Notes: a model not told the origin generated them from the sequence alone. Counted from the stretch's first letter, positions 4,279 through 44,236 are shown. The stretch: DNA of 64,000 nt from an uncultured Candidatus Saccharibacteria bacterium (GCA_964449235.1 CAYVAX010000001.1:20814-84813); one strand, 5' to 3'. A program made the numbers and translations.

Positions 4279-6624
4279 ATGAATAAAGCAAGAAAAAGTT
4301 GGAAAAAGTGGACTAACGCTGAAAAAAGAGAATTAAAAAGAATTTGTAAACAAGTAAGGTCATGGAAAGAATTAAGGTCAGAATTAGAAAAATCAAGAAT
4401 TCTTAAAGATAGAAACTATCGAAATGAGCTTCGTCGAAAGGCAATGCATCTTAATCTGACAAGGCACTTTACTGACCGCAGAGCTAAAGTTTCCAAAGAA
4501 AAAGAAGTTAGGAATAAACAGTTTCTATTCTCAAAATCAGAGAAGATTGCTCCTGCAGAAACATTCAAAATTGAAACAGGGGTTTGGGATAGAAAGAGCA
4601 CAAACATTGGTTTAATTTCACGAATTGACTTCGGTTCAAAAGGTTTTAGAGCGGGATTAATTAAGCTGGCACTCGAGAAAACTGCTCAGCATGGACTTCG
4701 TTTTAATATTCTCGTTGGAGGACTGGTAAATAAAAAAGTGCTTAAAAAGAAACTCCGAGATAGAATTAAAGAACTGAATGATCGTTTGCGAGGCTTGAGG
4801 CTTTCAGTAGAGGAAAAAAGAGAAGAAAGAGCACAAGAGAAAGATGATTTTTATTTCGAATGCGCAAGAGAGTTGGCAAGGTTAATTCCTCAGGTTAAAA
4901 AACCAAACGGTAAACCCGTAAAGCTGTATATGTTCACAAGCTCACCTTTTGATGGAAAAATTGGCGATGAAATTGCAAGAAGATTAGCAGCTTTAAGAAA
5001 AGACAATGATATTGTTTATTGGGGATTTAATCCTGAATATCCATTGCTGGTTAAACATGTAAATAAAACTTTATTTCCTGTAGTTTCTCAGCGACAATCA
5101 TGGATGAGATCAGACTACTATAGTACTCCTGTGCAGAGAGAATTAAAGGATCTTTTAAAGCGGTCTTCTATGGAGCTGTCGGATATATACACTGTGGGTT
5201 GTTTTGCTTCTAGCGTGTTCAAGCCGGAAGGAGATTCAAGAGTTCCCTACATGTCCTTGCCTGCAATACATAAACTAGACGAAACTCGAACATCGGAAAA
5301 TCAAATTGGAATACGTATTGTCAAGTTTCGAAAAAACAGAGAGCTTACTGTTAAAACTATTTCTTTTAAGGATTTGATTCGAGAAGAACGAAAATTGATT
5401 ACAATTCCTTCAAGTTGTTCTGAATTCCAATCTGCAATTATCAAACAGCTTAAGATAGCTCCTATGAGCAGCGGCGTGCTTGAATATCACCTAAAAGAAA
5501 ATCCCCGTTGGAGAAATATCACTCGTAAAGATGTAATCAAGGCCATTGAAGACCTGAAAAGGTTTAGAGCAGGTATTAACTTTGATAATGTCTCTAATCT
5601 TTTTGACTTCAGCTCTGAATGGTTTCAGAAAAAAGCACCTTATGAAATGCCTGAAGAGGATAAGCTTGCAGAAGATACATTTGTAGCTTGCTCTTGTCTG
5701 CATACAGGTGCTCCTCAAACTAATTACCGATTCATTGTTGAAGCTATCCCTAATTATATTATCCAAACTGGAGCTAAATATCTTGTATTGTCAGGAGATA
5801 TTATTCAAGGAACTTATCACCGCATGCTTGAAAAAGGGCAGATATATCGAGGTCTCAACTATACTTATCAGGAAAAACTTGCTGCAGGCTTAATGGGAAT
5901 CGTTATAACAAAAGTTTTTGAAACTCGTTTTAGTAAAGCTATTCGAAATAAAAAAGAATTAAATCAGGATGAATTGAAAAAATTAATCTCCGATTCTCTG
6001 GTCACATTTATCTACTTAGAAGGAAATCATGATGCCTGGGAACGATCCGGAAGTTTTGTTCCCTTGGTCGTTTTTGAACAAGACTTAATTAACTTTATAG
6101 TCAGAGAAATAAAGAAAACGCTCAAAAAATTTGATGTTCGTATTAACGGTGTACACGGCATTGTGGTGAATAAAATAATTCAAGATGATCCAATTGAACA
6201 AATATTCTATAGAACACCTTCGGGATTGGCTGTAAAAGTGGGACATCCTTATACCGGACGAAGTATTACTGCCAGCATTTCTGGAGAAAAATTCATGAAA
6301 ATGCATCTGGAATCTCATCTTAATTTTGTTGGTAATTGGCACGTAGGACTAAGTATGGAACACTTTGACCAAGAAATTGGGCAAAGAGTTTATGTCCAGC
6401 TACCTACAATCCAGAGATATACCTTGTTTGAAACTAACAAAATGAAAAAGACAGATTTCGGTGTTGGCATTTGTAGGGTTAAGTCTCTTAATGGACGAGT
6501 TGTAACTAGCGAAACTGGTTTTTACGGCGATCGCTTTTACGGAGACGCACAGAAAAATCTTAAGAAAATAGATAATGAAATTATCGACGAAATTCTAGTT
6601 AAACTTGGCGTACCTCTTTCTTAG
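4279..6624 (+). CDS. Hypothetical 781-aa protein: Lys/Arg-rich N-terminal region (~90 aa) and a C-terminal calcineurin-like metallophosphoesterase-like domain (Mre11/SbcD-like motifs, divergent)
   Basis: Motifs seen in translation: ...ACSCLHTGAP (motif I, with Cys in the usual Asp position), ...YLVLSGDIIQG (motif II, GD), ...IYLEGNHDAWE (motif III, GNHD), ...INGVHG..., ...GNWHVGLSMEHF (GHxH-like). A strong SD (aaggagg) lies 8 nt upstream of the ATG. Confidence 0.4.
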   Translation: MNKARKSWKKWTNAEKRELKRICKQVRSWKELRSELEKSRILKDRNYRNELRRKAMHLNLTRHFTDRRAKVSKEKEVRNKQFLFSKSEKIAPAETFKIETGVWDRKSTNIGLISRIDFGSKGFRAGLIKLALEKTAQHGLRFNILVGGLVNKKVLKKKLRDRIKELNDRLRGLRLSVEEKREERAQEKDDFYFECARELARLIPQVKKPNGKPVKLYMFTSSPFDGKIGDEIARRLAALRKDNDIVYWGFNPEYPLLVKHVNKTLFPVVSQRQSWMRSDYYSTPVQRELKDLLKRSSMELSDIYTVGCFASSVFKPEGDSRVPYMSLPAIHKLDETRTSENQIGIRIVKFRKNRELTVKTISFKDLIREERKLITIPSSCSEFQSAIIKQLKIAPMSSGVLEYHLKENPRWRNITRKDVIKAIEDLKRFRAGINFDNVSNLFDFSSEWFQKKAPYEMPEEDKLAEDTFVACSCLHTGAPQTNYRFIVEAIPNYIIQTGAKYLVLSGDIIQGTYHRMLEKGQIYRGLNYTYQEKLAAGLMGIVITKVFETRFSKAIRNKKELNQDELKKLISDSLVTFIYLEGNHDAWERSGSFVPLVVFEQDLINFIVREIKKTLKKFDVRINGVHGIVVNKIIQDDPIEQIFYRTPSGLAVKVGHPYTGRSITASISGEKFMKMHLESHLNFVGNWHVGLSMEHFDQEIGQRVYVQLPTIQRYTLFETNKMKKTDFGVGICRVKSLNGRVVTSETGFYGDRFYGDAQKNLKKIDNEIIDEILVKLGVPLS

Positions 6625-6763: not shown

Positions 6764-7219
6764 TTGGGCAAACAAGAAGAAAAAAAGCATGGTAGCATTC
6801 ATCACCTTATTGCTCGAAGCAGGGGAGGCCCTAAAAAAGCTTCCTGGAATAAAAGAAAAAAAATAGTTGAAAAACATCAGGCATTTCATACTTTAGCGCG
6901 CGCTTTATCTGAAAAAGCGGTAAATAAAAATTTACTTCCTTGTGAATTTATACATAAAATTATTGAACACTGGCAAACAAAATCAGGAAGCTTAAAAAAG
7001 AGCGCTTTAACAGACAAGCAAGAAAGGTCCTGGAAAGTATTGTTTAAAAATGCTTCTCCTGCAAAGGCAGCTAAGATTATAAGAAAATACTGGACAGTTA
7101 AGGATCAGCTGCATTTTAAAGGTTGCTTTAGCTATAAACAATGCTTTAAAAATAATAATTTTGAAAATCCCAATAAGAAATGCCCATTGGTAAAAATGTA
7201 CGAAAAAGGAGAAATATAA
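6764..7219 (+). CDS. Small HNH-endonuclease-like protein (TTG start, 7 nt after an AAGGAG SD)
   Basis: 151 aa. N-terminal ...HGSIHHLIARSRGGPKKASWNKRKKIVEKHQAFH... fits an H-H...N...H HNH core without Zn-Cys. The stop overlaps the next start (ataTAATGaat). Confidence 0.4.
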   Translation: MGKQEEKKHGSIHHLIARSRGGPKKASWNKRKKIVEKHQAFHTLARALSEKAVNKNLLPCEFIHKIIEHWQTKSGSLKKSALTDKQERSWKVLFKNASPAKAAKIIRKYWTVKDQLHFKGCFSYKQCFKNNNFENPNKKCPLVKMYEKGEI

Positions 7220-8511
7220 TGAATGAATACAAAATTAAGATTAATACCAAAAAAGAAAGTCCGATTATTGAAAATTTAAAGCAAAAAATACAACAAGAAG
7301 TAATTGGACAAGATCGCGCAATAAGACGATCCCTGCGAGCAGTTGCATCTTACTATAGCGGGCTAAAGGATCCTCGGCGGCCGATTGGAGGATTTATTTA
7401 TGCCGGTCCCACAGGAGTAGGAAAAACATTCGCCGCAAAAGTAAGTGCCAGACATTTTTTAGGAGGTAAACATAAATATCGCGACTATCTGGTTAGAATT
7501 GACGGCTCCACCCTCAGTGAAAGACATGAAGTTGCTAAGCTTAAAGGTGCTCCTCCAGGATATATTGGCTATGCTGAAACAAGCATTTTATCTCAAAAGA
7601 ATATTGATGCTTATCACTTTGACGTTTTAAATGAAGATAACGGTTACTGGGCAACTAAGCTGAAAAACTTTGACCAAGAAAAGCAAGCGGCCTTTCATGC
7701 TGGATCAAGAGAACAAGCTAGAAAAATTCAAGCATATCGTCTTTTAGAAGATGCATATGAAGCAAACAAGCCATATAAATCTGTGATTCTTTTTGATGAA
7801 ATTGAAAAAGCTCATCCTGCTATCTGGAATGTGTTGTTGCAAATTATGGAAGAGGGAAAAATTCAAATGGGAAAGGGCGTCGAAGAAACAGATTTCAGTA
7901 ATTCTCTGATAATCCTGACTACAAACATTGGACAAAGAAGCATCCAGGGATTAATCAGTAAAAATGCTCGTGTAGGATTTGATACTAGTCAGAATATTAC
8001 AGAAAGCAAATTAGACAAAAATATTTACGAATCCACTAAAAAACAGATTGAAAAAGAATTTCCTCCAGAATTATTCAAAAGACTGAATCTGGTAGTTTTC
8101 AGACCCTTATCAGAAGACAATTTTAAAAAAATTCTCGATAACTTTCTTGCCGACGAAGAAGAACTGCTTAATCAGCGAATAAAATATTTTTCCGCTCGTT
8201 CAATTGATATTGAGTATTCAAAATCAGCAAAGAAATTTTTATTAAAAAAGGGAATCGATGTTCATTACGGCGTAAGAACGCTAAGATCGGTTGTGGAAAA
8301 ATATGTTCGCGCTTCGCTTGCAAACGGATTAGCAAACAGAGAAATCCGTCCTGGTGATAGTATCTGGGTGGATGTTAAAAACAGTAAGTTGGTTTTTTTG
8401 AGAAAATACCGCAAACGCGGACCAAATGCTATTAAACGCAATCCCCAGCAATTTCAATCAAATTCAAATCAAGCTGGATTCCGCTTACTAAACGAAAAAT
8501 CCGAGCATTAA
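7219..8511 (+). CDS. Orphan Clp/Hsp100 D2-like AAA+ ATPase (single AAA module)
   Basis: Walker A YAGPTGVGKTFAAK; Walker B/sensor VILFDEIEKAHPAIWNVLLQIMEEGKI (Hsp100 D2 signature); ...LIILTTNIG. A ~50-aa insertion sits between Walker A and Walker B relative to ClpB D2. The ATG at 7219 has an AAGGAG SD 8 nt upstream; the track ORF starts earlier at 7180. Confidence 0.6.
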   Translation: MNEYKIKINTKKESPIIENLKQKIQQEVIGQDRAIRRSLRAVASYYSGLKDPRRPIGGFIYAGPTGVGKTFAAKVSARHFLGGKHKYRDYLVRIDGSTLSERHEVAKLKGAPPGYIGYAETSILSQKNIDAYHFDVLNEDNGYWATKLKNFDQEKQAAFHAGSREQARKIQAYRLLEDAYEANKPYKSVILFDEIEKAHPAIWNVLLQIMEEGKIQMGKGVEETDFSNSLIILTTNIGQRSIQGLISKNARVGFDTSQNITESKLDKNIYESTKKQIEKEFPPELFKRLNLVVFRPLSEDNFKKILDNFLADEEELLNQRIKYFSARSIDIEYSKSAKKFLLKKGIDVHYGVRTLRSVVEKYVRASLANGLANREIRPGDSIWVDVKNSKLVFLRKYRKRGPNAIKRNPQQFQSNSNQAGFRLLNEKSEH

Positions 8512-13915: not shown

Positions 13916-16729
13916 ATGCCAATAGCGTTATCTAAAAAATTAATTGCTTTAACACTTTTATTTTTTTCTGTTTTTATAACTTTATTGCCTGTTTGCGCGC
14001 AGGCAAGTGCTGTTTCCGTGGATATTAATTTAAGCGCAAATAATGTCGCGGCGGGATCAGAAGTGGAAGTAAGAATATTAATGACATCTCGCGAACCAGC
14101 AAACGCTTTTGATGTTACTTTGAAATATTCGCCAGAGATTTTTGAGCTTAGCCGGGCTTCAACCCAGCGTTCTATTGTTTCTTTTTGGAAATCTCTTCCC
14201 TTGGAAGATAAGGAGGGAGTGATACGATTTATTGGCGGAATGATTGAGCCGTTTTCAGGCAAAAACGGCGAGATTATAACCTTAGTTTTTAGGACTCGCG
14301 ATTTTGGTTCTGCTGATTTTGCAATTAAAAAAGCGGATTTTGCTTTAGCTGACGGTAAAGGTACGCTTGTTCGGGCAGGAGAAGCACGTTCTGGCGTTAT
14401 TGTTGCAGAAAGAGGTCAGCTAGCAAGCTCGGATCTTAAACCGTCTGCTCCGCAAATTTCTGAAGCAATAGTAACTAAGGACTCTGCCACCAGTAATCCA
14501 ATTATTTTAATAAAAACCCTAGATGACGGCGGAGTGAAAGAAATACTTGTGCGCAGCCGTTCATGGTTCTTATGGAGCGATTGGCAAAAAGCGCAATTGA
14601 CAGCCTCGATTCCAAAATACGCCTGGGCAATTCAACTTAAAGCATTTAACTGGGAAGGCAAGGAAGCCGAAACTATTGTATATCGCTGGCACATTATGGC
14701 ATTGAAATTTTTAGCAATTCTCGCTGCTTTAGCTGTTTTATGGTATATAGTACGGCGATTCGCAAAGAAGCGTGTTGTAATTGCGTTGGCAATTATTTTG
14801 GCGGGAATTGCGTTTTCAGGAACCGCCAACGCGGCTGTTATTTCCTTAAGTCCGGCAAGCGGAACTTTTCATGTTGGAGGCACTTTTGAAGCGCAAATCC
14901 TGCTTGACACTGAAGGCGAGAGCGTAAACGCTTTGGATATGCATTTGCTTTTTCCGCCGGATAAACTTCAGGTTGTTTCTTCTGGTGCTGGAAAATCCAT
15001 TGTAGATATTTGGACTAGCACTCCGAGATTTGACAATCAGCAGGGGAAAATATCTCTATCAGGAGGAATACCAAATGGTACTTTAGTGAATAAAGGGCTG
15101 ATTGCAACAATTGTTTTTCGAGTGAGGCAAGTTGGAAGCGCAGCAGTACGTTTTAGTGATGATACTCGCATTCTTTTGAACGACGGCAAAGGCACAGATA
15201 CTCTGCGGAAAACTCAAGGCGCTGTATATCAGATTGTTCTTCCAGCTCCGGCAGGGCCGATTGTGGCTTCTGAAACTCATCCCGACCAAACGCAATGGCA
15301 TGCTGTTTCAGATGTTATTTTGCGCTGGACAGCGCTATCCGCGGTTGGCGGCTACAGTTACATATTGGATAATTCTCCTATGACTGTTCCTGATAATATA
15401 GTGGATTCCACGAAAGATTCCGTCTTTTATAAAGATTTGTCATCAGGCACGCATTATTTTCATATTAAAGCCCAAAATTCCGACAATGCATGGGGTGGCA
15501 TAACTCATTTTGCAATAAATATTGACATTAATCCTCCCGCTAAATTTCCAATAGAAGTCCAGACCAGCCAACGCACCACTAGCCGGAACGTGGTATTTTC
15601 TTTTTCAACCACTGATGCTCATTCCGGCATTGATAAATATGAATATCAAATTATTCCTTTGCAACCCGCAAGCGTTGAACAGGGTTCTTTTTTCTTTGTA
15701 GAAACGCAGAGTCCTCAGGCGATGAATTTAGATATCGGAACATACGATATTATTGTAAGGGCGTACGACAAAACAGGCAATTTTCAAGAAAGCCAGGCAA
15801 GAGTACGAATAATGACGCCATTTGTATTTTGGGCTACTAACAAATATCTTTTAGGGGGTTTGCTTCTGCTTGTGATTTTATTTGCTGTTATAGCTCGGAG
15901 AATTTATGTTCGTCACCGCGAAATTGAGAAAAAACGAGACCAAAAAGAAATGCCCGATTCAGTGCAAAAAAAACTTAAGGATCTTGATAAATATCAGAAG
16001 AAATACGGTGCTTTGGTTCTTTTAATTTTAATTTTATTTGGGTCTTTATTGTTTGTGCCACAGGTCAGTGCGCAATCTTCGGAACTTGCTCCGCCAATTA
16101 TCACCACAGCGCCGCAACATATTTCCAATGAAGAAATTTTTTACCTCGGAGGCACAGCAGGTCTACCAAATGCAAAAATCATTATTTATATACAGAACTT
16201 GAGCACTGGCGAGATATTCAGTTATTCGGAGACTGCCGGAGAGAAAGGAGAATGGTTTTATCGTCACCCCTCGTTCCTTTCCGAAGGGAAATATATGATT
16301 TGGGTTCAATCCATGCTGGGAGATATGGTTAGTCCGCCAAGCCCTCAAATTAATGTTAGGGTTGTTTCGACAGCCATTCAATTTGGGGCCTCACGGTTGA
16401 GCTATGAAATGTTTTATTTACTGTGCGCCTTGATTCTGCTGGTAGCGCTTCTGGGTCTTTTAGCGTTTATTGTATTTCATGCCAAAAGCGGTCGGAAAAA
16501 ACGCAAAATGTTAATGAAAGAAATTCGTGAGGCCGAAAGAGCAGTGAAATCAGGATTTGATAAACTTAGGCATGATATTAAGGTTGAGCTAGCAGTAATC
16601 AAAAGAGCCAAGCTAAGCAAGGAGTTGTCCCGCGAGGAAGAAAAGAAAGAAAAACATCTACTTAAAGACCTGAAAGCAATTGAGCGCCATATTAGCAAAG
16701 AGGTGGAAGATGTGGAGAGAGCTGCTTGA
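13916..16729 (+). CDS. 937-aa polytopic surface scaffold with two cohesin-like modules, further Ig/Fn-like ectodomains, and a C-terminal cytoplasmic coiled coil
   Basis: Signal peptide ...LLPVCAQASA. Module 1: VSVDINLSANNVAAGSEVEVRILMTS...AFDVTLKYSPEIFEL...GVIRFIGGMIEPFSGKNGEIITLVFRTRDFGSADFAIKKADFALADGKGT. Module 2: ...ISLSPASGTFHVGGTFEAQILLDTEGESVNALDMHLLFPPDKLQVV...GKISLSGGIPNGTLVNKGLIATIVFRVRQVGSAAVRFSDDTRILLNDGKGT. There are six hydrophobic helices in total, three of them followed by AxA-like sites. Confidence 0.6.
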   Translation: MPIALSKKLIALTLLFFSVFITLLPVCAQASAVSVDINLSANNVAAGSEVEVRILMTSREPANAFDVTLKYSPEIFELSRASTQRSIVSFWKSLPLEDKEGVIRFIGGMIEPFSGKNGEIITLVFRTRDFGSADFAIKKADFALADGKGTLVRAGEARSGVIVAERGQLASSDLKPSAPQISEAIVTKDSATSNPIILIKTLDDGGVKEILVRSRSWFLWSDWQKAQLTASIPKYAWAIQLKAFNWEGKEAETIVYRWHIMALKFLAILAALAVLWYIVRRFAKKRVVIALAIILAGIAFSGTANAAVISLSPASGTFHVGGTFEAQILLDTEGESVNALDMHLLFPPDKLQVVSSGAGKSIVDIWTSTPRFDNQQGKISLSGGIPNGTLVNKGLIATIVFRVRQVGSAAVRFSDDTRILLNDGKGTDTLRKTQGAVYQIVLPAPAGPIVASETHPDQTQWHAVSDVILRWTALSAVGGYSYILDNSPMTVPDNIVDSTKDSVFYKDLSSGTHYFHIKAQNSDNAWGGITHFAINIDINPPAKFPIEVQTSQRTTSRNVVFSFSTTDAHSGIDKYEYQIIPLQPASVEQGSFFFVETQSPQAMNLDIGTYDIIVRAYDKTGNFQESQARVRIMTPFVFWATNKYLLGGLLLLVILFAVIARRIYVRHREIEKKRDQKEMPDSVQKKLKDLDKYQKKYGALVLLILILFGSLLFVPQVSAQSSELAPPIITTAPQHISNEEIFYLGGTAGLPNAKIIIYIQNLSTGEIFSYSETAGEKGEWFYRHPSFLSEGKYMIWVQSMLGDMVSPPSPQINVRVVSTAIQFGASRLSYEMFYLLCALILLVALLGLLAFIVFHAKSGRKKRKMLMKEIREAERAVKSGFDKLRHDIKVELAVIKRAKLSKELSREEEKKEKHLLKDLKAIERHISKEVEDVERAA

Positions 16730-18090: not shown

Positions 18091-20235
18091 CTATAATTTG
18101 AGTTTAAATACTTTTTTTTCACATAAAAAATAAATTTCTTTTTCATTTCCAGTAACCCAAAAATCAGAAAGTCGGTTAAATTCTTTATTCACATACTGAT
18201 TTATTATCTCTCCTTTCCTGTTTAAAACAATTAAGCGCCTGTTCTCTGGATCGGATATATATAAATGCTTAAAATCAGATTCAACAAATAATTTGTTATT
18301 CCCGGATAATTGCTGATTTAATTTTAATGGTATTTGGCGAACTTCTTTTCCTTGAAAATACTCAGTTATTGTTCCTTGGGAATTGAGAACATAGATTGCG
18401 CCATCAATAGCCATGGATTGAGCAGTCTTTAATCCTTCTTCAGGCTGCGATAACCAACTTTTTCCATTAATGGTTTCTGCCTGTATTGACGATAAAGGAT
18501 ATTTTATAATCTCACCCTGCTGGGAATTTAATATGTAGAAATTAGAAAGAAACCTTCCCAAGCTTTGAATTTTTTCAATAGAGATTTCCGGGCTTAACAG
18601 GTAAGCTTCATGTTCTTTTGTGGCGCTGTTGTAAATATAAGCTTTGCCGCTTTGTCCAAACAAGATTATTTGTCCAGAATTTAAAGAAATCATTTTCCTT
18701 AATTCGTCTTTTGCGGAAATGAATATTAGGGTTAAAGAATTTTTTTCTTCTGTACTCAAATCTGACTTATAAAGAATGCCTGAATCCAATTCGTAAAAAT
18801 ATAGACTATTTTCTGCTTTACTAATTCCTGCAGGATTAACAATAAATCCAGTCTTAGAAAAATTTAAAACCTCCTCGAGCTGATTCACCCTAATTACGTT
18901 ATTAATGCTGTCTTGCTGATTTTGATATTTTTCCTCTAAGGTAAAGGCTCTGGCAATGACCTGCTCATTGTTTTTTAAGGATGCTTGTCGGGCATGATCA
19001 ATAAGACTAGAAAGCAAGGACTGGTTTCTTTCTATTAATGCTCGGGCCTTATCTTGCTGTTGGTAAATTAAGGCAGAATCTATCTTTTTTTGAATTGCTT
19101 GAACTTTTTCAGCTAACTGATTAAATGCATGCAGCTTGGTTAAATAATTAATCTTTTGAACAGTAAAATAGGGGAGAATTAAAATTAATAAAATTAAAAT
19201 TAATGAAATAATAAATGCAGGTTTGTTTTGATCTTTTAAATAATAATATTTTTTTCTAATTTTGTATTTTTCATTTAGTTTTTGAGGAATTTTGCGAGTG
19301 GTTATTGTTATCCGCTGGCAAACTGCAGTTTTTCCTATTGCTCTGGTTACTGGCCTCAAAAGCCTGAATCCTTTGCCCAGGAGTATAAATATAACTTTGA
19401 ATGTGGTTCCGATTTTTAAAATTATAGGTCTAAGCTTTCCAATGCTAATTCTTTTTTGCTTGGTTATTTTTTGTTCAATTTCAGGGCTAGTTTTTACTAT
19501 CTGAGGAGCAGTATCAGTAACAAACACTGGTTTTGCCTCTAATACCAGACTGACTAATGGAGGCTTAATTGATTTAGCCCTGGCTAAATTTTCAAAATTC
19601 AATATTATCCGATTACAATCTTTTGTAGAAAGCGCTTTCAGCTCTTTCAGGGAAGCAAGAGTTAGAATGTTTTTAGTGCCTAATACTAGTTTATCCCCGG
19701 GTATAATTTTTCCACTAGCAATATTATTAAATGTTTTTAGGGGAGGAACTTTTTCTGAGTCTGTGAATTTTTTTTCAATGTGGCTTACGCCCCCTTCTCT
19801 AAACAACTTAATCATTATATCTCCAGCCTGAGTGACATGAAGCGTGTTTTCGGTTAAAACACCACAAACAAAATGAAAATTGCCCATCCATTCTGTGTTT
19901 CCTTTTTCAGCAAAGTCGGCTAAATAAAGGTTTGCCTTGTTAAGGCTGGCCTCTAAAGCTTCTGCCCCGGAACGTTTAAAATCAGAATAAAATTCACGCT
20001 TAATTACCGAAATTAGCAGATTTAAAAGAAAGTCAGTGCTTTTATACTTGTTCTTGGGAATATTATCTATTTTTCCCAACATAAAAAGAGTACCCAATTT
20101 GGCCTCCTCAATGTTTTTTGGCTCATAGACAAAAAAATCATAAACACAGTCTGGATGTTTAGTTTTTCCTATCCCAGGGCTTTCTACTGGCCTAATAAAC
20201 TCTTTAGAATAAAATTGAAGATTATCTTCTGACAT
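18091..20235 (-). CDS. Hypothetical bitopic membrane protein: ~330-aa cytoplasmic N-domain (weak PP2C/PPM-like motifs, tentative), one TM helix, ~360-aa extracytoplasmic coiled-coil plus beta-propeller-like repeat region
   Basis: TM helix KPAFIISLILILLILILPYFTV. N-domain ...FHFVCGVLTENTLHVTQAGDIMIKLFREGG... resembles PPM motifs only loosely. The C-terminus has repeated ...LYISD...RLIVLN... beta-strand patterns. Confidence 0.35.
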   Translation of the reverse strand: MSEDNLQFYSKEFIRPVESPGIGKTKHPDCVYDFFVYEPKNIEEAKLGTLFMLGKIDNIPKNKYKSTDFLLNLLISVIKREFYSDFKRSGAEALEASLNKANLYLADFAEKGNTEWMGNFHFVCGVLTENTLHVTQAGDIMIKLFREGGVSHIEKKFTDSEKVPPLKTFNNIASGKIIPGDKLVLGTKNILTLASLKELKALSTKDCNRIILNFENLARAKSIKPPLVSLVLEAKPVFVTDTAPQIVKTSPEIEQKITKQKRISIGKLRPIILKIGTTFKVIFILLGKGFRLLRPVTRAIGKTAVCQRITITTRKIPQKLNEKYKIRKKYYYLKDQNKPAFIISLILILLILILPYFTVQKINYLTKLHAFNQLAEKVQAIQKKIDSALIYQQQDKARALIERNQSLLSSLIDHARQASLKNNEQVIARAFTLEEKYQNQQDSINNVIRVNQLEEVLNFSKTGFIVNPAGISKAENSLYFYELDSGILYKSDLSTEEKNSLTLIFISAKDELRKMISLNSGQIILFGQSGKAYIYNSATKEHEAYLLSPEISIEKIQSLGRFLSNFYILNSQQGEIIKYPLSSIQAETINGKSWLSQPEEGLKTAQSMAIDGAIYVLNSQGTITEYFQGKEVRQIPLKLNQQLSGNNKLFVESDFKHLYISDPENRRLIVLNRKGEIINQYVNKEFNRLSDFWVTGNEKEIYFLCEKKVFKLKL

Positions 20236-20322: not shown

Positions 20323-21315
20323 ATGGCAAAATCTAAAACAAAAAAGAGTTCTAAAAAAAGAACTACAAAAAAAAGAAATAAAAGAAGAACAAAGAAAAGA
20401 ACAACTCCAAAGAGAAAAACAAAGTCAAGAAAAAAAACTCTTAAAAAGAGGCCCACTAAGAAAAGAAAATCCTCCAAAAAGAGGGGAGCTTCTCGAAAGC
20501 CTAAAAAAAGAACTACAAGAAAGAAACCAACAAAAACAAAGAGGTCCTATAGAAAAAAAAGAAAAACACCTAGAAAAAAGTATAGAACCAGAAAAAAACC
20601 AAAAACAAGAAAGACAACCAGGCGAAAACCAAAACAAAGATCACAAAAGAGAAAATCAGTTAAACGAAAGCGGGCCAAGAAAAAATATGCTCCTAAAAAG
20701 AAAACTAGAACATATCCTAACAAAGGATCTCTAGAGCAGTTATTTGAATCCGGTCCAAAGGTAAGGATTATGAAGCTATTTTTCAGAAATCCTGAAGAAA
20801 GCTTTTTATTTAAAGATGCAGCAAAACTAATGAGGATGAGAGCAGACACAGCCAGAAAAGAAATGAAAAAATTAGAAACAATTGGACTGTTAAGAAGTAG
20901 AAAAATATCCCCCCGAAAACAATTATTTTCTATTGACCACAGCTTTAATTTCCTTAACGAGCTTCGAGAATTAATCTTAAAGGCCAGTCCAGTCCCCAAA
21001 GACAGACTATTAAAAACAATCAGAAAATTGGGGAAAATTAAAATGGTTCTGGTTTCAGGAATATTTCTCGGAGAAGATGCCCCTAAAACTAATCGCGGAA
21101 CAACTCGTACAGATTTGCTGATTGTAGGAGATAATGTTAGCTCTAGAAAAGTAAGCCGGTTTATAAAAAACATTGAAGCTGAAGCAGGAACAAATGTAAA
21201 CTGCGCAGTAATGAGCGCTAAAGACTTTAAATATCGGTATAACATGTACGACAGATTTGTAAGGGACTTGATTAACGAAAAATCAGAGTTTTTAATGAAT
21301 AAATTGAAGTTTTAA
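20323..21315 (+). CDS. Histone-H1-like basic-tail protein: ~125-aa K/R/T-rich low-complexity N-terminus + C-terminal winged-helix-like and nucleotidyltransferase-like (degenerate) region
   Basis: N-terminus KSKTKKSSKKRTTKKRNKRRTKKRTTPKRKTKSRKK... (over 60% K/R). C-terminus ...VRIMKLFFRNPEESFLFKDAAKLMRMRADTARKEMKKLETIGLL... and ...LVSGIFLGEDAPKTNRGTTRTDLLIVGD... Confidence 0.5.
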   Translation: MAKSKTKKSSKKRTTKKRNKRRTKKRTTPKRKTKSRKKTLKKRPTKKRKSSKKRGASRKPKKRTTRKKPTKTKRSYRKKRKTPRKKYRTRKKPKTRKTTRRKPKQRSQKRKSVKRKRAKKKYAPKKKTRTYPNKGSLEQLFESGPKVRIMKLFFRNPEESFLFKDAAKLMRMRADTARKEMKKLETIGLLRSRKISPRKQLFSIDHSFNFLNELRELILKASPVPKDRLLKTIRKLGKIKMVLVSGIFLGEDAPKTNRGTTRTDLLIVGDNVSSRKVSRFIKNIEAEAGTNVNCAVMSAKDFKYRYNMYDRFVRDLINEKSEFLMNKLKF

Positions 21316-21391: not shown

Positions 21392-21424
21392 AAACGATTA
21401 AATTTAATTTAATCGTTTTTTTGT
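21392..21424 (+). terminator. Rho-independent terminator after tRNA-Val
   Basis: aaacgattaaa-tttaa-tttaatcgttt + tttttt. Confidence 0.75.
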
Positions 21425-21440
21425 TTATGGTATAATAAAA

Positions 21441-21842
21441 ATGATGAGATTGATTTTGAAAAAACCAATAATTTTGCAGTTTTGGAAATGGTATTATACA
21501 GAAGCAATAAAAAGCCTGATTAACATTTGGAAAAATTTTATTATCTTTGTTCAGGAATACTATTCTATTCCTTTGCTGTTAAAAACTTTAGTTGCTCCTT
21601 GGAAAAGGGATGTTACTCGCAAGCCTCGAGGTTTGGATATTAAAAAACTTCTTGAGGCTTTTACTTTTAATGCTATTTCCAGAACTATTGGATTTTTTGT
21701 TAGGTCAGTAACAATTGTTTTTGGCTTAATTTGTTTGTTGGGCGTAATTATTTTAGGATTTGTAGCTTTAATTATTTGGTTAATCCTTCCGTTTGCACTA
21801 ATATTCCTTGTTATTATGGGAATATTGTTGCTTGCAGGTTAA
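21441..21842 (+). CDS. Small hypothetical membrane protein (C-terminal 2 TM helices)
   Basis: 133 aa. ...VTIVFGLICLLGVIILGFVALIIWLILPFALIFLVIMGILLLAG. Its stop immediately precedes the ATG of the next gene (ggtTAAtATG). Confidence 0.45.
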   Translation: MMRLILKKPIILQFWKWYYTEAIKSLINIWKNFIIFVQEYYSIPLLLKTLVAPWKRDVTRKPRGLDIKKLLEAFTFNAISRTIGFFVRSVTIVFGLICLLGVIILGFVALIIWLILPFALIFLVIMGILLLAG

Positions 21843-21843
21843 T

Positions 21844-24390
21844 ATGGGGTTTGATTTAAAATCAACAACTATTTATCAGATAGTTAAATTGGCAAAAGTA
21901 TTTTCTCCCAAGTTAGTACTTGTTATGAACTGGCTGTTTTTAATTATTACTTTTTCGTTATTAGTAGTGTTTTTAGGCAATCAACCGTTTTTACAATTGA
22001 GCTCTGGTCAAGTATTCGGTCTCTTTTTAATTGTATTAAGCTTTAATATTTTTGGATGGATTTGGTTAATATTTTTTAAGGCTGTTTTAAGAGAAAATAC
22101 TTTACTCAAGGTTCCTTTAGAAAAAGTAACCTCTTTTACAGAAATTGAAAATTTAAATTTAGCTGAATATTTAGACTTTATAATCGTAGATGCTTTAATT
22201 GATGCTATTAACTTTTGCAAACGAAAAAGGATTTCGCTTACGGCCTTAATAGTAGTATTGTTCTTATTCAAGAATGAACGGGTAAATAAAGTATTTGATA
22301 AATTAGGAATTGCTAAAAAGGAAATAAAAAGGGCTGTAAGCAAAAAAGAGGCAAATCTAAAACCCAGCAAGTTATTGTACAGTCAAAACTTTTTAAAAAT
22401 TATTAACCAATCGGCAAAAGCAGCAATTGCAAATTTTCACCGCCAAATAGAGGTTAAGGATTTTTTAGTAACTGCTGCAGAATACGATAATGATTTTAGG
22501 GAAATTTTATTTGACAACGATCTTGAATATGCTGATGTAAATCACGTAATTGCCTGGGACAATTTTATCACCTACGAAGCTGAATGGAAAAGCAAGTTCT
22601 GGAAACTAGAAAATCTTTTAAAAAGGCCCGGAATTGGAAAACAATGGGCAGCCGGGCATACTGTCAATGTTGATAAATACGCTACAGATGTTACCAAATT
22701 AATAAAACATAAAGACATTCCTCTTCACGTTGTAGGAAGAAAAACGGAAATTGAAACCATTGAAAGAATCCTTTCGCGCAGAGGAGAAAATAATGTATTG
22801 GTGATTGGTAAGCCTGGAGGAGGAAGATCAACAATTGTTTACAGTTTTGCTAAAAAAATCATGGAAGGAAGATCTGTTCCGGGATTGAATTACAAACGAG
22901 TATTGGAAATAGATATGCAAGCAATGTTTGCAGGATTAAAAACCCATGGAGAAATTTTGGATAGATTTAAAATTGTTTTTTCAGAAGCAGCAAATGCTGG
23001 CAATGTCATTTTAATAATTGACGACATTCATAACTATATTGGAGAACAAAAAGGAGTAGGAGGATTGGATATTTCCTCAGCATTAACCTCTTATCTTGGC
23101 TCTCCTGAACTTCAAGTTATTGGGGTAACTACTTTTTCAGGATTTCATAAAAACATTGAAACCAATCCCGCAGTTATGAACTTCTTTGAAAAAGTTGAAA
23201 TTGAAGAACCTTCTAAAAAAGAATCAATGTTTGTTTTAGAAGATTTGCTTCCTAAATTTGAAAAAGAATATGGTTTAAAGGTGGGATATAAAGGGTTAAG
23301 AACGGTTATTGACCTCACCGACCGATACATTCAGGATGTTCCTTTTCCGGAAAAAGCAATTGATTTCTTGGGAGAGGTAATGGTGTATGTAAAAACACAA
23401 ACCAATTCTCGAGTCGTTCTTCCGGAGCATGTTGCCCAGGTTATTTCTCAAAAAACTAAAATACCAGCTGGAGAAATTCAAAAGACTGAAAAAGAAAAAC
23501 TATTAAAACTAGAAGAATACATTCACCAGCGGGTTGTTGACCAGGAAGAAGCTGTTAATGCTCTAGCAGATGCAATGAGAAGAAGTCGGGCAGGAGTTGC
23601 TGGACGGAATAAGCCTATTGGGACATTTTTGTTTCTTGGTCCCACAGGGGTAGGAAAAACAGAAACTTCCAAAGCATTAGCAGAATCATATTTTGGCTCA
23701 GAAAAAGAAATGATCCGATTAGATATGTCTGAATACCAAAGCATACAATCAATCAATCGCCTTATTGGCTCTTCAGACGGAACTCAGGGACTATTAACCA
23801 ATGCTATTAGGGAAAGACCTTTTTCTTTGGTTTTGTTAGATGAAATAGAAAAAGCTCATCCGAACATTTTAAATTTATTTCTCCAGGTTTTAGATGAAGG
23901 ACGTTTGACTGATAATTTGGGCAGGACAGTAAGCTTTCGAAATTCAATTATTATTGGAACATCCAATGCTGGCGCAGAATTTATACGCCAATATCTCGGT
24001 CAAGAAAAAAAACCTAGCTACGATTATGCTGCATTTAAAAAAGAACTGATAAATAATCTTTTAGAGCGGGGCATTTTTCGACCAGAATTTCTTAATCGTT
24101 TTGATGCTACAATAACCTTTAAGCCTTTGTCTCCAGAAGATTTAACATTGATTGCGAAATTAATGCTCCAGAAATTAAACCAACGTCTTGTTCATGGAAG
24201 AGGAATTCAGTTAGTAATAACTGATGAGCTGGCAAAGAAAGTAGCAGAATTGGGATATAATCCTGAATTTGGAGCAAGACCGATGAATAGGGTTATCCAG
24301 GATAGGATCGAAAATAAAATTGCTAAAAAAATACTATCTGGCCAGCTTAGAAAAGGAGATGCTATAGAATTAAAAACTGAAGAAATTTAA
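21844..24390 (+). CDS. Membrane-anchored ClpB/ClpC-like Hsp100 protein: polytopic TM N-terminus, degenerate (pseudo-ATPase) D1, intact D2, no M-domain and no ClpP-binding IGF loop
   Basis: D1 Walker A is VLVIGKPGGGRST (Lys to Arg), Walker B is ILIIDDIH (Glu to Asp), and the Arg-finger position reads NFFEK. D2 is intact: FLFLGPTGVGKTETSKALAE, LVLLDEIEKAHPNILNLFLQVLDEGRLTDNLGRTVSFRNSIIIGTSNAG, GARPMNRVIQ. N-terminal TM helices MNWLFLIITFSLLVVFLG, VFGLFLIVLSFNIFGWIWLIFF. The track ORF begins at 21808; the ATG at 21844 is used here. Confidence 0.65.
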   Translation: MGFDLKSTTIYQIVKLAKVFSPKLVLVMNWLFLIITFSLLVVFLGNQPFLQLSSGQVFGLFLIVLSFNIFGWIWLIFFKAVLRENTLLKVPLEKVTSFTEIENLNLAEYLDFIIVDALIDAINFCKRKRISLTALIVVLFLFKNERVNKVFDKLGIAKKEIKRAVSKKEANLKPSKLLYSQNFLKIINQSAKAAIANFHRQIEVKDFLVTAAEYDNDFREILFDNDLEYADVNHVIAWDNFITYEAEWKSKFWKLENLLKRPGIGKQWAAGHTVNVDKYATDVTKLIKHKDIPLHVVGRKTEIETIERILSRRGENNVLVIGKPGGGRSTIVYSFAKKIMEGRSVPGLNYKRVLEIDMQAMFAGLKTHGEILDRFKIVFSEAANAGNVILIIDDIHNYIGEQKGVGGLDISSALTSYLGSPELQVIGVTTFSGFHKNIETNPAVMNFFEKVEIEEPSKKESMFVLEDLLPKFEKEYGLKVGYKGLRTVIDLTDRYIQDVPFPEKAIDFLGEVMVYVKTQTNSRVVLPEHVAQVISQKTKIPAGEIQKTEKEKLLKLEEYIHQRVVDQEEAVNALADAMRRSRAGVAGRNKPIGTFLFLGPTGVGKTETSKALAESYFGSEKEMIRLDMSEYQSIQSINRLIGSSDGTQGLLTNAIRERPFSLVLLDEIEKAHPNILNLFLQVLDEGRLTDNLGRTVSFRNSIIIGTSNAGAEFIRQYLGQEKKPSYDYAAFKKELINNLLERGIFRPEFLNRFDATITFKPLSPEDLTLIAKLMLQKLNQRLVHGRGIQLVITDELAKKVAELGYNPEFGARPMNRVIQDRIENKIAKKILSGQLRKGDAIELKTEEI

Positions 24391-24465: not shown

Positions 24466-24496
24466 AAAAATGGCTCTGTAGAGCCATTTTTATTTT
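24466..24496 (+). terminator. Rho-independent terminator after the ClpB-like gene
   Basis: aaaaatggctc-tgta-gagccattttt + atttt. Confidence 0.75.
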
Positions 24497-24530: not shown

Positions 24531-24599
24531 TTGACAGAGGACATAAAGGTGGGGTAGAATTAAATTGTAGTGGGTAATTGTGGATAATTTTGGGGATAA
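24531..24599 (+). promoter_or_regulatory. Candidate mraZ promoter (TTGACA-N18-TAGAAT) followed by three 10-bp-phased direct repeats (GTGGGTAATT / GTGGATAATT / TTGGGGATAA): candidate MraZ operator
   Basis: -35 at 24531-24536, -10 at 24555-24560, repeats at 24570-24599, with an additional GGTGGGG at 24548-24554 one helical turn pair upstream. In E. coli, MraZ binds direct GTGGG repeats with 5-nt spacers upstream of mraZ (established). Confidence 0.45.
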
Positions 24600-24621: not shown

Positions 24622-25053
24622 ATGCTAATTGGAGAATACAAACATACAATTGATATTAAAAAAAGGTTGGCTATTCCTTCTAAGTTAAGAAGAGAGTTGG
24701 GTGCAAAGGCAGTTATTACCAGGGGATTGGATAATTGTCTTTTTGTTTTTCCTCAAAAACAATGGAGCAAGTTAATTCAAAAATTAAGCAAATTACCCTT
24801 AGGGCAAAGAGACACAAGAGGATTTACGCGATTGATGCTGGCAGGTGCAAGCGAGACGGGATTAGACAAATTAGGGAGAATTCTAATTCCTGACTATTTA
24901 AAAAAATATGCAGGACTAAAAAAGAATGTAGTTATTGCCGGAGTATATAATCGTTTGGAGATTTGGGACGAAAATAAATGGAAGTTGTTTAAACAAAGCA
25001 CTGAAAAGGAAGTAGATAATATGGCTGAACGTTTGGGTGAAATTGGCGTATGA
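24622..25053 (+). CDS. mraZ: Transcriptional regulator MraZ
   Basis: 143 aa. MLIGEYKHTIDIKKRLAIPSKLRRELG... has the duplicated MraZ/SpoVT-AbrB-like halves. The stop overlaps the rsmH start. Confidence 0.85.
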   Translation: MLIGEYKHTIDIKKRLAIPSKLRRELGAKAVITRGLDNCLFVFPQKQWSKLIQKLSKLPLGQRDTRGFTRLMLAGASETGLDKLGRILIPDYLKKYAGLKKNVVIAGVYNRLEIWDENKWKLFKQSTEKEVDNMAERLGEIGV

Positions 25054-38845: not shown

Positions 38846-38940
38846 AATTGTTTATAGTTTATTTCTTAACTTAACCTTAAATATATTATATCACATCTAG
38901 AAATATTTTCCTAACAACTTTGTGGATACATGCACAGGGG

Positions 38941-38969
38941 TTGACAGGTTTTTCCCGCACGATTATAAT
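38941..38969 (+). promoter_or_regulatory. Consensus sigma70 promoter TTGACA-N17-TATAAT upstream of hrcA
   Basis: ttgaca(38941-46)-ggtttttcccgcacgat-tataat(38964-69). Confidence 0.6.
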
Positions 38970-38973
38970 ACAA

Positions 38974-39000
38974 TTAGCAGTCTTCTCTTAAGACTGCTAA
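38974..39000 (+). promoter_or_regulatory. CIRCE-like HrcA operator: TTAGCAGTC-N9-GACTGCTAA (perfect 9-bp inverted repeat, one swapped position relative to the canonical TTAGCACTC-N9-GAGTGCTAA)
   Basis: Lies between the -10 hexamer and the hrcA ATG (39006). Confidence 0.65.
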
Positions 39001-39005
39001 TCAAA

Positions 39006-39722
39006 ATGACTGACCGCCAAAAAAAAATTATTACCCTCTTAATCAAGGAATACGTAAAGCGGCCAAGGCCAGTGAGCTCTAGCTTATTAGCTCAAAAATA
39101 CAAGCTGGGATTAAGTCCGGCAACAATCAGAAATGAAATGAAAATATTGGAAAGGCTAGGATACTTAGCCCAGCCGCATACATCAGCTGGACGTGTGCCT
39201 ACAGAGAAAGCTTATCGTTTGTTTATTAACTCTTTAAGAGAAAAAGAGGGAAAAGAATCTCCAAAGCCCTTAAAGAAAGCTTCGAAAAATTTAAAATTAA
39301 AACAATCTGAAGAAATTCTCAGAGAAACAACTAAAAAGTTAGCGCAAATGTCAGGAGGATTTGCATTTAGCAGCACTGAAGAAGGGGAATTTCTTCACCA
39401 GTTTGGTTTAGCGAATTTACTGAAAGAAGCAGAGTTGGAAGATGAAGATTTTTTTACAGAAATAACTCAAATAATGGAAGAACTTGATAAACACTTTGAT
39501 AAACTGCTTAAAAAAGTAATTGAGAATGAAACCAAGGTGTTTATCGGCAAAGAAAATCCATTAGGAAAAACTAAAAAATTAACTTTAATTATTTCCAGCT
39601 GTAAAACTCCTGAGCATAAACAAGGAATAATCGGGCTATTGGGTCCAATGCGCATGCGTTACGAACAAAATATCCCGTTAATAAATAAATTAAAGGAGAT
39701 ATTAGAAGAACATGAGCAATAA
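39006..39722 (+). CDS. hrcA: Heat-inducible transcription repressor HrcA (short form, 238 aa)
   Basis: MTDRQKKIITLLIKEYVKRPRPVSSSLLAQKYKLGLSPATIRNEMKILERLGYLAQPHTSAGRVPTEKAYRLFIN: wHTH of HrcA. The track ORF starts at 38922, but the promoter and CIRCE place the true start at the ATG at 39006. Confidence 0.75.
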   Translation: MTDRQKKIITLLIKEYVKRPRPVSSSLLAQKYKLGLSPATIRNEMKILERLGYLAQPHTSAGRVPTEKAYRLFINSLREKEGKESPKPLKKASKNLKLKQSEEILRETTKKLAQMSGGFAFSSTEEGEFLHQFGLANLLKEAELEDEDFFTEITQIMEELDKHFDKLLKKVIENETKVFIGKENPLGKTKKLTLIISSCKTPEHKQGIIGLLGPMRMRYEQNIPLINKLKEILEEHEQ

Positions 39723-40224
39723 AAAAGGGGATGATAAATTAGAATATGAACCGGAAGACGACAAAGATTTTTCAGAGAAAATAAAAAAGCTTAAGAGTAA
39801 GCTCAAATCCTGCCAAAAAGAAAAGGCAGAATATCTTGCTGGCTGGCAGCGGGCAAAAGCGGATTTAATTAATTACAAAAAAGAGCAGGAGAATAAAATC
39901 TCTGAATACTACAAATTTGCAAACGAAGGATTAATTTTAGAAGTTTTACCAGTTTTAGACAGTTTTGAACAAGCATTAAAGCACATTTCTAAACCTGAAA
40001 AAGAAAATATTCAGCAAATATACAAACAATTAAAAAATATTTTAAAAACCAATGGAGTTGAAGAGATTCCAGTAATAGGAAAAAAATTTAACCCTGAATT
40101 TCACGAAGCAGTTGAAGAAGTTAAATCTAATAAAAAATCCGGAGTTATTATTGAGGAAGTTCAGAGGGGATATAAGCTCCATGGAAAAACAATTAGAGCA
40201 AGTAGGGTTAAAGTTAGTAAATAA
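39712..40224 (+). CDS. grpE: Nucleotide exchange factor GrpE
   Basis: 170 aa. Coiled-coil N-terminus and a C-terminal ...GYKLHGKTIRASRVKVSK beta-sheet domain. Confidence 0.8.
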   Translation: MSNKKGDDKLEYEPEDDKDFSEKIKKLKSKLKSCQKEKAEYLAGWQRAKADLINYKKEQENKISEYYKFANEGLILEVLPVLDSFEQALKHISKPEKENIQQIYKQLKNILKTNGVEEIPVIGKKFNPEFHEAVEEVKSNKKSGVIIEEVQRGYKLHGKTIRASRVKVSK

Positions 40225-40368
40225 TTCTATCCGCTGCCCACAAAGGTTAAAGGAGATAAATCCAGTACAACTTCAGAAAACGGAATGTTAAAAATTTCTC
40301 TTCCTAAAAAAACCGAAACTAAAAAGAAAAAATCTCTGTTAAAATTAAAAATAAAAAGAAATAAATAA
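40225..40368 (+). pseudogene. Relic of a small heat-shock protein (Hsp20/alpha-crystallin) C-terminus, in frame immediately after the grpE TAA
   Basis: Translation FYPLPTKVKGDKSSTTSENGMLKISLPKKTETKKKKSLLKLKIKRNK* contains the sHSP beta9 strand consensus (..ENGVL.I.LPK) and a C-terminal I-x-I-like (KIK) tail. No alpha-crystallin domain precedes it. Confidence 0.45.
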
Positions 40369-40457
40369 CAATTTTGAGATTAAAAATTTATGATTAGGGA
40401 ATTTGAATAGGTGATTAATTCCCTAAGTCAAAATTTTTGATCTCTAATCTTATTACC

Positions 40458-42395: not shown

Positions 42396-42403
42396 ATATT
42401 CAC

Positions 42404-42443
42404 ATTAATATCCACTGGCGTTTAAGCGTCAGTGGATATTAAT
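42404..42443 (+). terminator. 14-bp perfect hairpin (attaatatccactg ... cagtggatattaat) after dnaK; terminator-like, no U-tract
   Basis: Inverted repeat seen in sequence. Confidence 0.4.
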
Positions 42444-43253: not shown

Positions 43254-43287
43254 AAAGCCCATCAACTAAAGACAGGCTTTTAATGTT

Positions 43288-44232: not shown

Positions 44233-44236
44233 AAAT

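Follow-up and report, generated by a model that had tools for sequence, protein, structure and literature searches.

Hsp100/Clp proteins are soluble threading motors. In a different AAA+ clade, NSF and Pex1/Pex6 consist of two rings, of which one is inactive but conserved, presumably as a scaffold, and the other is the motor; these soluble proteins retain aromatic pore loops in the active ring, and adaptors recruit them. ClpB grips the backbone of its substrate with Y251 and Y653, and its pore-loop motifs are essential for translocation (PMC6546751). The Torsins, which are related to Clp proteins, have no aromatic pore loops, are associated with membranes, depend on transmembrane (TM) cofactors, and are thought not to thread their substrates (PMC5425593). 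Here, we describe a gene at positions 21844-24390 of a 64,000-nucleotide stretch (hereafter the window; GCA_964449235.1, CAYVAX010000001.1:20814-84813) from an uncultured Candidatus Saccharibacteria bacterium, which encodes a predicted membrane-anchored Hsp100/Clp-family ATPase and follows the gene of a small membrane protein. The two constitute a real, widely conserved two-gene unit of the ultra-small Patescibacteria. The ATPase family is filed as ClpC in databases, and no published description of a membrane-anchored or pore-loop-less bacterial Hsp100 was found in the full-text literature. Its architecture is solid, and from it we infer a mechanism.

Domain architecture

An initial annotation made from the sequence had recognized a Clp-like two-ring ATPase in this gene, which agreed well with our profile and structure comparisons. 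Tandem D1 and D2 AAA+ modules with AAA_lid_9 and ClpB_D2-small domains were recovered by Pfam, AlphaFold2 (AF2), and Foldseek. Pfam matched AAA_2 at residues 590-755 (8e-48), ClpB_D2-small at residues 762-842 (3e-24), and AAA_lid_9 at residues 457-555, and gave only generic, weak AAA matches over D1. The nearest solved structures by sequence were ClpB and ClpC (phmmer, E ~1e-136 to 1e-131, top E 4e-136), with ClpA also among the best matches, and a Foldseek search of the PDB with the predicted fold (AF2 mean predicted local distance difference test score, pLDDT, 81.5; predicted TM-score, pTM, 0.70) likewise returned ClpC and ClpB as the best hits (E 2e-48). The NCBIfam matches (ClpB, ClpA, ClpK, ClpV, and ClpG) were all far under the curated equivalog cut-offs, with 551 versus 1232 bits for ClpB (TIGR03346), 487 versus 993 for ClpA (TIGR02639), and 446 versus 885 for ClpV (TIGR03345).

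A search of 5.8 billion proteins yielded about 110 homologs covering most or all of the protein at 36-89% identity, nearly all from Patescibacteria or Candidate Phyla Radiation metagenomes and named, where a name was given, 'ClpC' or 'AAA family ATPase'. The homologs used for the choice of start codon were 838-852 amino acids (aa) long and begin at an aligned M-x-F-D-L, for which reason the ATG at 21844 was adopted and the alternative start TTG at 21808 (860 aa) was rejected.

The initial annotation had further described several TM helices within the N-terminal ~200 aa in place of the Clp N-domain. The Kyte-Doolittle (KD) hydropathy scan, the AF2 model, and the family as a whole consistently gave only two, both within the first ~82 residues (Table 1) and separated by a K/R-poor loop of ~12 aa. 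The best 19-aa hydropathy within the first 110 residues never fell below 1.76 in 102 full-length homologs (median 2.63), whereas canonical ClpC reached 1.17 at most. Counts of Lys plus Arg in these members came to 3.6 ahead of TM1, 1.0 for the loop, and 3.3 for the 21 residues past TM2; this distribution follows the positive-inside pattern and fits a hairpin of N-in/C-in topology that would leave the ATPase in the cytoplasm. The membrane tether proposed initially is supported, as a prediction, by both the hydropathy and the charge distribution of the family.

The N-domain itself proved to be retained. While Pfam gave no direct match to Clp_N in the 848-aa protein, PF02861 (Clp_N) matched weakly in some homologs, and hhalign comparison of the family profile over residues 95-262 with canonical ClpC N-domains gave a probability of 95.2% (E 2.6e-8) over 122 columns spanning both repeats. 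In the AF2 model, eight helices lie between residues 112 and 250. A divergent Clp N-domain is thus present behind the hairpin, and the hairpin is therefore added to it at the N-terminus and does not take its place. The N-domain is joined to D1 by a linker that the family shares, at residues ~251-277, with the motif FW.LENLLK..GIGK.WAAG.TVN.D, which is without counterpart in canonical ClpB/C; N257 and L258 are invariant, and F252, W253, W268, G271, T273, and D277 are conserved in at least 90%. The linker is put forward as a possible site at which the partner or clients dock. The domain order accordingly reads TM hairpin, Clp_N-like domain, conserved linker, D1, and D2.

Pore loops and ATPase sites

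The catalytic and pore-loop motifs were compared residue by residue through a phmmer alignment to E. coli ClpB, and were tabulated for 113 family members with six canonical ClpC matches as controls. A feature missed by the initial annotation is that the pore-loop tyrosines are missing from both rings, in 113/113 members. In D1, where ClpB has the KYR tyrosine, no family member has Tyr. In D2, this protein reads GSSDGTQ-----G where ClpB has GAPPGYVGYEEGG, which corresponds to a Y653 to T substitution together with a five-residue deletion at GYEEG; relative to the canonical segment GSPPGYVGYEEGG, the resulting GSSDGTQG is 3-6 residues shorter. Over the family, the D2 loop is 7-10 residues long as against 13 in canonical ClpC, its mean net charge is -1.2, and an aromatic residue occupies the Tyr position in 0 members. 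The positions of the secondary D2' contacts (E639/K640/H641 of ClpB) are variable in the family consensus. Because both tyrosines are gone, the D2 loop is short and polar or acidic, and the D2' contacts are variable, canonical threading appears unlikely.

In contrast to its pore loop, the catalytic site of D2 is intact. As the initial annotation had stated for Walker A, Walker B, sensor-1, and sensor-2, D2 shows the canonical motifs of ClpB, including LLDEIEKAHP, TSNAG, FLNRFD, and GARPMNRV. The Lys and Thr of Walker A, the Asp and Glu of Walker B, the sensor-1 Asn, the arginine finger, and the sensor-2 Arg were invariant (109-112 of 113 aligned), the arginine finger being R752 in this protein.

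In D1, the alignment to ClpB and the family table verified the three departures listed in the initial annotation, namely Lys to Arg in Walker A (R328), Glu to Asp in Walker B (D394), and NFFEK at the arginine-finger region (N446/F447). Among the 113 members, the Walker A Lys position is occupied by R in 97, K in 13, and another residue in 3, and the residue after it is mostly S (68), K (22), or T (6). The Walker B Glu position carries E in 60, D in 36, and N in 15. The first arginine-finger position is N in 81, S in 15, K in 8, and R in 2; the second is L in 62 and F in 30, and is R in none. The sensor-1 Thr is kept in 104/113, and the sensor-2 position is R in 82 and K in 15. Since the aligned family displays the changes, they are lineage-conserved rather than sequencing errors. 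Mean pairwise identity within the family was 0.54 for the large and 0.50 for the small subdomain of D1, compared with 0.67 for D2 large, 0.33 for the N-domain, and 0.32 for the TM region; as these D1 values exceed that of the N-domain, D1 is under purifying selection and not decaying. Without the Lys, the Glu, and both trans arginines, D1 of this protein is presumably unable to hydrolyze ATP. Given that the P-loop glycines, the Ser/Thr, the Walker B Asp, sensor-1, and sensor-2 are kept under selection, the ring probably acts as a scaffold and may still bind nucleotide. The motif table thus bore out the earlier proposal, and the designation of D1 as a pseudo-ATPase ring is supported at the level of sequence.

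The elements that couple Clp proteins to other machines were absent, as had been noted initially. No M-domain was detected: the ClpA profile aligned in a single stretch (residues 117-844 to profile positions 8-733), the alignment to ClpB was split with the M-domain unmatched, and D1-small of the AF2 model (residues 456-522) showed no coiled-coil insertion. The ClpP-docking [ILV]G[FLM] loop was not found between sensor-1 and the arginine finger of D2 in this protein, and was present in 1/113 family members as against 5/6 canonical ClpC. Without an M-domain or a ClpP loop, the protein is presumably uncoupled from both DnaK and ClpP. Pfam also gave no Peptidase_M41 match in the 848-aa protein.

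The partner gene and the transcription unit

The start of the ATPase gene lies 1 nt past the TAA of the upstream gene, and the junction TAAtATG and the two-TM C-terminus of the 133-aa open reading frame (ORF) are in agreement with what the initial annotation had reported. From the spacing of the genes, the two may be co-translated. The partner begins with tandem ATG codons at 21441 and 21444, of which database gene calls take the second (132 aa). Its N-terminal ~85 residues are conserved, rich in aromatic residues, and predicted to be cytoplasmic, and the AF2 model (pLDDT 84) is all-helical. The protein gave no match in Pfam, NCBIfam, PHROGs, or PADLOC. The 68 homologs detected are all unnamed or 'hypothetical', and they share 26 invariant columns, including W17, Y19, W30, P53-W54, D57, R81, and R88.

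In 15/19 patescibacterial loci, five of the loci being saccharibacterial, searches with a hidden Markov model of the partner placed a homologous ORF immediately upstream of the Clp-like gene; in one further locus, it lies 2 kb upstream. In related loci, the gap between the two genes is ~20 nt or less, or the genes overlap. This arrangement upholds the functional link to the upstream membrane protein that had been suggested from the single locus.

As shown in Table 1, terminator-like hairpins flank the two genes. An extended -10-like element, TGgTATAAT, stands so close to the start of the partner gene that it suggests a promoter of the unit's own and, possibly, a leaderless mRNA; the element was read directly from the sequence, and the consensus promoter scan did not report it, as it has no -35 match. 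On the basis of the flanking hairpins, this element, and the separate promoter match before mraZ, the partner and ATPase genes look like an autonomous bicistronic unit. By the same sigma-70-like match upstream of mraZ, the division and cell wall (dcw) cluster appears to be transcribed separately.

Distribution of the family

Scanning a genome collection with the family alignment returned predominantly generic Clp patterns (GPTGVGKTE) and hence little taxonomic information, with ~19 loci of the TM-anchored type out of 80; these loci were used for the synteny and motif checks. Distant relatives from genome contigs, including several Saccharibacteria, have lost both pore tyrosines and the D1 arginine fingers and keep GK[ST] in D1. 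From this pattern, the loss of pore loops and arginine fingers looks ancestral, and the Lys to Arg exchange looks specific to a clade. When the N-terminal 262 aa were compared with 1.84 billion cluster representatives, 62 clusters were found at E <= 1e-3, a number unfit as a measure of family size because this region evolves too fast for a single-sequence query.

Relatives of the TM-anchored type without pore tyrosines were also seen in four metagenome-assembled genomes labeled 'uncultured Gammaproteobacteria' (L003, L024, L042, and L070), in the last of which the small partner is weakly matched (E 4e-4) upstream. Possibly, the bins are mislabeled Patescibacteria; alternatively, the family may extend beyond that group. 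The clp genes mentioned in published TM7x transcriptome papers are mostly those of the host, together with a single unnamed 'clp protease' gene of TM7x, and nothing on the TM-anchored family was found in them.

Proposed function and alternative explanations

Taken together, we consider it somewhat better than an even chance (probability roughly 0.55) that the locus is a patescibacterial two-gene operon for a small membrane protein and a membrane-tethered, divergent Hsp100 that works by remodeling or switching rather than by threading. In the proposed mechanism, the TM hairpin of the ATPase would fasten it to the inner face of the membrane, with the N-domain face toward the bilayer. Within the tethered ring, D1 would be a non-hydrolyzing and possibly nucleotide-binding scaffold, and D2 would be the only motor. 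Acting independently of ClpP and DnaK, ATP hydrolysis by D2 would drive the remodeling or switching of the partner, or of membrane-proximal clients bound through the N-domain and linker, in a manner that would resemble a Torsin with its TM cofactor. Processive threading, disaggregation, and protease delivery would be less likely roles. As the gene often stands immediately upstream of mraZ-rsmH-ftsL-ftsI, envelope or division proteins would be the first client candidates.

Several points weigh against this proposal. The TM prediction has hydropathy and AF2 as its only basis. An F or Y occurs at position 2 or 3 of the D2 loop in 10/111 members, and threading by non-canonical loops may take place, as some AAA+ machines do so. 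The D1 arginine pair is described in one report as indispensable for ClpB's oligomerization and activity (PMC4239642), and as the D1 arginine fingers are lost here, assembly into a ring is itself uncertain. A hexamer, binding of nucleotide to D1, contact with the partner, and the clients named are likewise presumed. Finally, adjacency to mraZ is absent in several other clades, and the units are apparently transcribed separately.

The initial annotation had favored an unfoldase or extractase, which in the terms of the present data would be a membrane-tethered threading enzyme similar to Msp1 or FtsH, with non-canonical pore loops and a passive D1. As in FtsH and Msp1, the N-terminal anchor would turn the N-domain, that is the entry face, toward the membrane; D2 is a complete ATPase motor on a ClpC/ClpB-like fold, and a minority of the homologs carry, as mentioned above, an F or Y early in the D2 loop. 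However, the equivalents of ClpB Y251 and Y653 are absent from both rings family-wide, the D2 loop is curtailed, and the variable D2' positions correspond to ClpB residues that contact substrate and are essential for translocation (PMC6546751). We therefore regard an extractase as doubtful, although it is the alternative that survives best.

The remodeling proposal draws its client candidates from the same gene order that would suit a regulator devoted to cell division or peptidoglycan synthesis, in which the ATPase and its partner would assemble, disassemble, or time divisome or envelope proteins. In the window, as in loci at 78%, 51%, and 42% identity, mraZ-rsmH-ftsL-ftsI(-murE) comes immediately downstream of the ATPase gene, and a locus at 43% has one gene inserted before mraZ; at 78% and 51%, the whole order of rplJ-rplL, a minus-strand gene for a ~700-aa protein of no known family, a K/R-rich protein of 282-330 aa, the partner, the TM-anchored Clp, and mraZ-rsmH-ftsL-ftsI-murE is the same. 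This adjacency is suggestive of an envelope or division link. On the other hand, other clades do not show it, a terminator-like hairpin lies between the genes together with a separate promoter-like site, and synteny in small genomes can persist without functional link, so that a role as dedicated regulator seems improbable.

An ordinary diverged ortholog of ClpC/ClpB, either disaggregase or ClpP partner, is what the database label 'ATP-dependent Clp protease ATP-binding subunit ClpC' implies, and the best profile and structure matches are indeed ClpB and ClpC. Yet such an ortholog is very hard to reconcile with equivalog scores far under every cut-off, with the absence of M-domain, ClpP loop, and pore tyrosines, with an inactive D1 and a TM anchor, and with the canonical ClpC/B-type protein that other Patescibacteria have in addition (L048 and L073). 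A reading of the D1 substitutions as errors of sequencing or assembly, or as signs of gene decay, is refuted for practical purposes by the same substitutions in more than 100 independent metagenomic homologs with intact frames and by the D1 identity of 0.54.

If remodeling or switching is correct, bacteria have turned the Clp scaffold to a membrane task other than threading, as happened with the Torsins of eukaryotes, and the label 'ClpC, ATP-dependent Clp protease subunit', a systematic mis-annotation borne by thousands of genomes of Patescibacteria, would be corrected. The family would also provide a bacterial system amenable to study of how AAA+ rings that have no pore loops do work; cultivable Saccharibacteria, for example Nanosynbacter or Southlakia, carry relatives. 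In a bolder version, which we put forward as a long shot, the two proteins would form a new AAA+-powered membrane machine universal in Patescibacteria, with a polar or acidic, non-gripping channel, in which D2 gates, assembles, or moves something at or across the membrane without threading. Such a hexamer would have 12 + 12 TM helices above the ring, and its cargo candidates would be envelope or division components or host-exchanged material. If this held, bacteria would have in this machine their counterpart of the Torsin systems, themselves still unexplained, and these episymbionts a function that defines their lineage. The unit also points to a conserved, uncharacterized part of patescibacterial membrane biology.

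Genomic neighborhood

The window is AT-rich (GC ~0.32-0.42) and its gene content is that of a small patescibacterial genome, with rplJ-rplL, mraZ-rsmH-ftsL-ftsI-murE-ddl, hrcA-grpE-dnaK...dnaJ, and several tRNA synthetases. The coordinates of the features are summarized in Table 1.

Table 1. Positions in the window of the two-gene unit, its motifs and signals, and related genes.
Feature	Position	Strand	Description
Hsp100/Clp-family ATPase gene, predicted membrane-anchored	21844..24390	+	ATG start, 848 aa
TM helix 1 (predicted)	21910..21978	+	residues ~23-45; KD maximum 2.64; AF2 helix 22-44, pLDDT ~90; family mean KD 2.23
TM helix 2 (predicted)	22009..22083	+	residues ~56-80; KD scan; AF2 helix 54-82, pLDDT ~90
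Divergent Clp N-domain	22171..22593	+	residues ~110-250, two four-helix repeats
Family-specific linker, N-domain to D1	22594..22674	+	residues ~251-277, KFWKLENLLKRPGIGKQWAAGHTVNVD; family alignment
D1 AAA+ module, large and small subdomains	22675..23409	+	degenerate; no M-domain insertion
D1 Walker A GKPGGGRST	22807..22833	+	R328 replaces catalytic Lys (E. coli ClpB GEPGVGKTA)
D1 pore loop AGLKTHGEI	22930..22956	+	T367 replaces KYR tyrosine (ClpB AGAKYRGE)
D1 Walker B LIIDDIHN	23011..23034	+	D394 replaces catalytic Glu (ClpB LFIDELH)
D1 arginine-finger region PAVMNFFEKV	23167..23196	+	N446/F447 replace RR (ClpB ALERRFQK)
D2 AAA+ module and ClpB_D2-small	23521..24378	+	catalytic site intact; Pfam, motif table
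D2 Walker A GPTGVGKTE	23638..23664	+	K and T in 112/112 aligned residues
D2 pore loop GSSDGTQG	23767..23790	+	GYVGY segment gone, no aromatic, loop shortened
D2 Walker B LLDEIEKA	23833..23856	+	motif table
Small partner gene	21441..21842	+	133 aa (132 aa from ATG 21444); C-terminal TM hairpin, residues ~81-133, KD scan
AT-rich hairpin and U7 run, terminator-like	21392..21418	+	-9.1 kcal/mol, z -3.3; parts K/R-rich gene from two-gene unit
Extended -10-like element TGgTATAAT	21428..21436	+	4 nt before ATG 21441, 7 nt before ATG 21444
Intrinsic-terminator-like hairpin, then UUUUUAUUUU	24466..24491	+	-13.7 kcal/mol, z -5.1; 0/200 shuffles as stable; ends unit before mraZ promoter-like site
Sigma-70-like promoter match TTGACA-18-TAGAAT	24531..24560	+	11/12; upstream of mraZ
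mraZ	24622-25053		Pfam identification
Single-ring ClpB-D2-like ATPase	7180-8511	+	443 aa; AAA_2 and ClpB_D2-small

A second Clp-like gene, encoding a single-ring ATPase, lies elsewhere in the window. This protein has canonical Walker A/B motifs, an intact GAPPGYIGY pore loop, sensor-2 GVR, and a ~55-residue insertion past the pore loop, and its ~25 close homologs (372-443 aa, labeled 'ClpC' or 'ClpA') form a small family of their own. From its motifs, it could cover ordinary unfolding and be the actual threading Clp of the cell. Among the 48 window ORFs scanned against Pfam, covering 64 kb of the genome, neither ClpP nor a canonical ClpB/C was found.

A heat-shock cluster at 38922-45328 (hrcA-grpE-dnaK ... 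dnaJ) includes unannotated ORFs at 42432-43253 (+) and 43288-44232 (-) between dnaK and dnaJ; DnaK is thus encoded in the window, although the TM-anchored Clp is without the M-domain needed for DnaK coupling. The 330-aa protein at 20323-21315 (+), upstream of the partner gene, consists almost entirely of K, R, T, and S in its first ~130 residues, is folded in its C-terminal part, and gave no Pfam or NCBIfam match. In four related loci (L081, L082, L083, and L084), a 282-323-aa ORF without Pfam match takes its position, the likeness noted here being one of position. On the minus strand, the 714-aa protein at 18091-20235 has an internal hydrophobic segment and no family match; an unannotated minus-strand gene for 667-727 aa lies between rplL and the K/R-rich gene in L081, L083, and L084. 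Two further large ORFs at 4279-6624 (+) and 13916-16729 (+), encoding 781 and 937 aa, gave no Pfam match, and one has a sub-threshold OmpL47-type NCBIfam match. The second of them sits in a stretch of raised GC (0.41-0.42 at 12-16 kb versus 0.32-0.37 around it).

Comparison with known systems

The protein shares with ClpC, ClpB, and ClpA the order of Clp_N, D1, D2, and D2-small, the canonical D2 ATPase site, and the fold, and with ClpA also the lack of an M-domain. It differs from them in having an N-terminal TM hairpin and an obligate-looking small membrane partner gene, and in lacking the Lys and Glu of D1, the D1 arginine fingers, the pore tyrosines of D1 and D2, the ClpP-docking loop, and the coiled-coil M-domain; it also scores under every curated Clp equivalog cut-off. 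Whereas both rings are competent in ClpC, ClpA, and ClpE, D1 here carries R328, D394, and N446/F447. Similarly, an assignment to ClpV/TssH disagrees with the equivalog score, which is under the cut-off, and with the context, as no genes of a type VI secretion system were found in the window or in related loci.

Of the defense-associated ATPases, the ClpB-like proteins DolB (Dodola anti-phage system) and PDC-M37B have PADLOC profiles that match D2 (E 6e-34 and 8e-32). These are matches to a generic D2 module only, and the gene lies in a housekeeping neighborhood (rplJ-rplL ... mraZ) without partner defense gene. As PHROGs gave nothing either, a defense system was rejected.

FtsH, Msp1/ATAD1, and Bcs1 also have an N-terminal TM anchor that puts the ring at the membrane surface, but they consist of a single classical-clade AAA module with neither Clp_N nor D2-small. 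Two reports describe FtsH and Msp1 as threading with aromatic pore loops and FtsH as carrying a protease domain (PMC7949044, PMC12793716). In contrast to FtsH, the present protein has neither an M41 zinc protease domain nor the aromatic pore loop. With NSF and Pex1/Pex6, it would have in common one conserved, inactive ring beside a motor ring.

The Torsins have a single AAA+ module, obtain their arginine finger from a cofactor, and are located in the lumen of the endoplasmic reticulum, whereas this protein has two modules and its own D2 arginine finger, R752, and the 133-aa partner is helical and not a degenerate AAA+ fold. The comparison is thus one of analogy and not of membership. As an analogy, a Clp-related AAA+ protein without aromatic pore loops, associated with a membrane and provided with a TM partner, would bear a functional resemblance to Torsin and its cofactors LAP1/LULL1.

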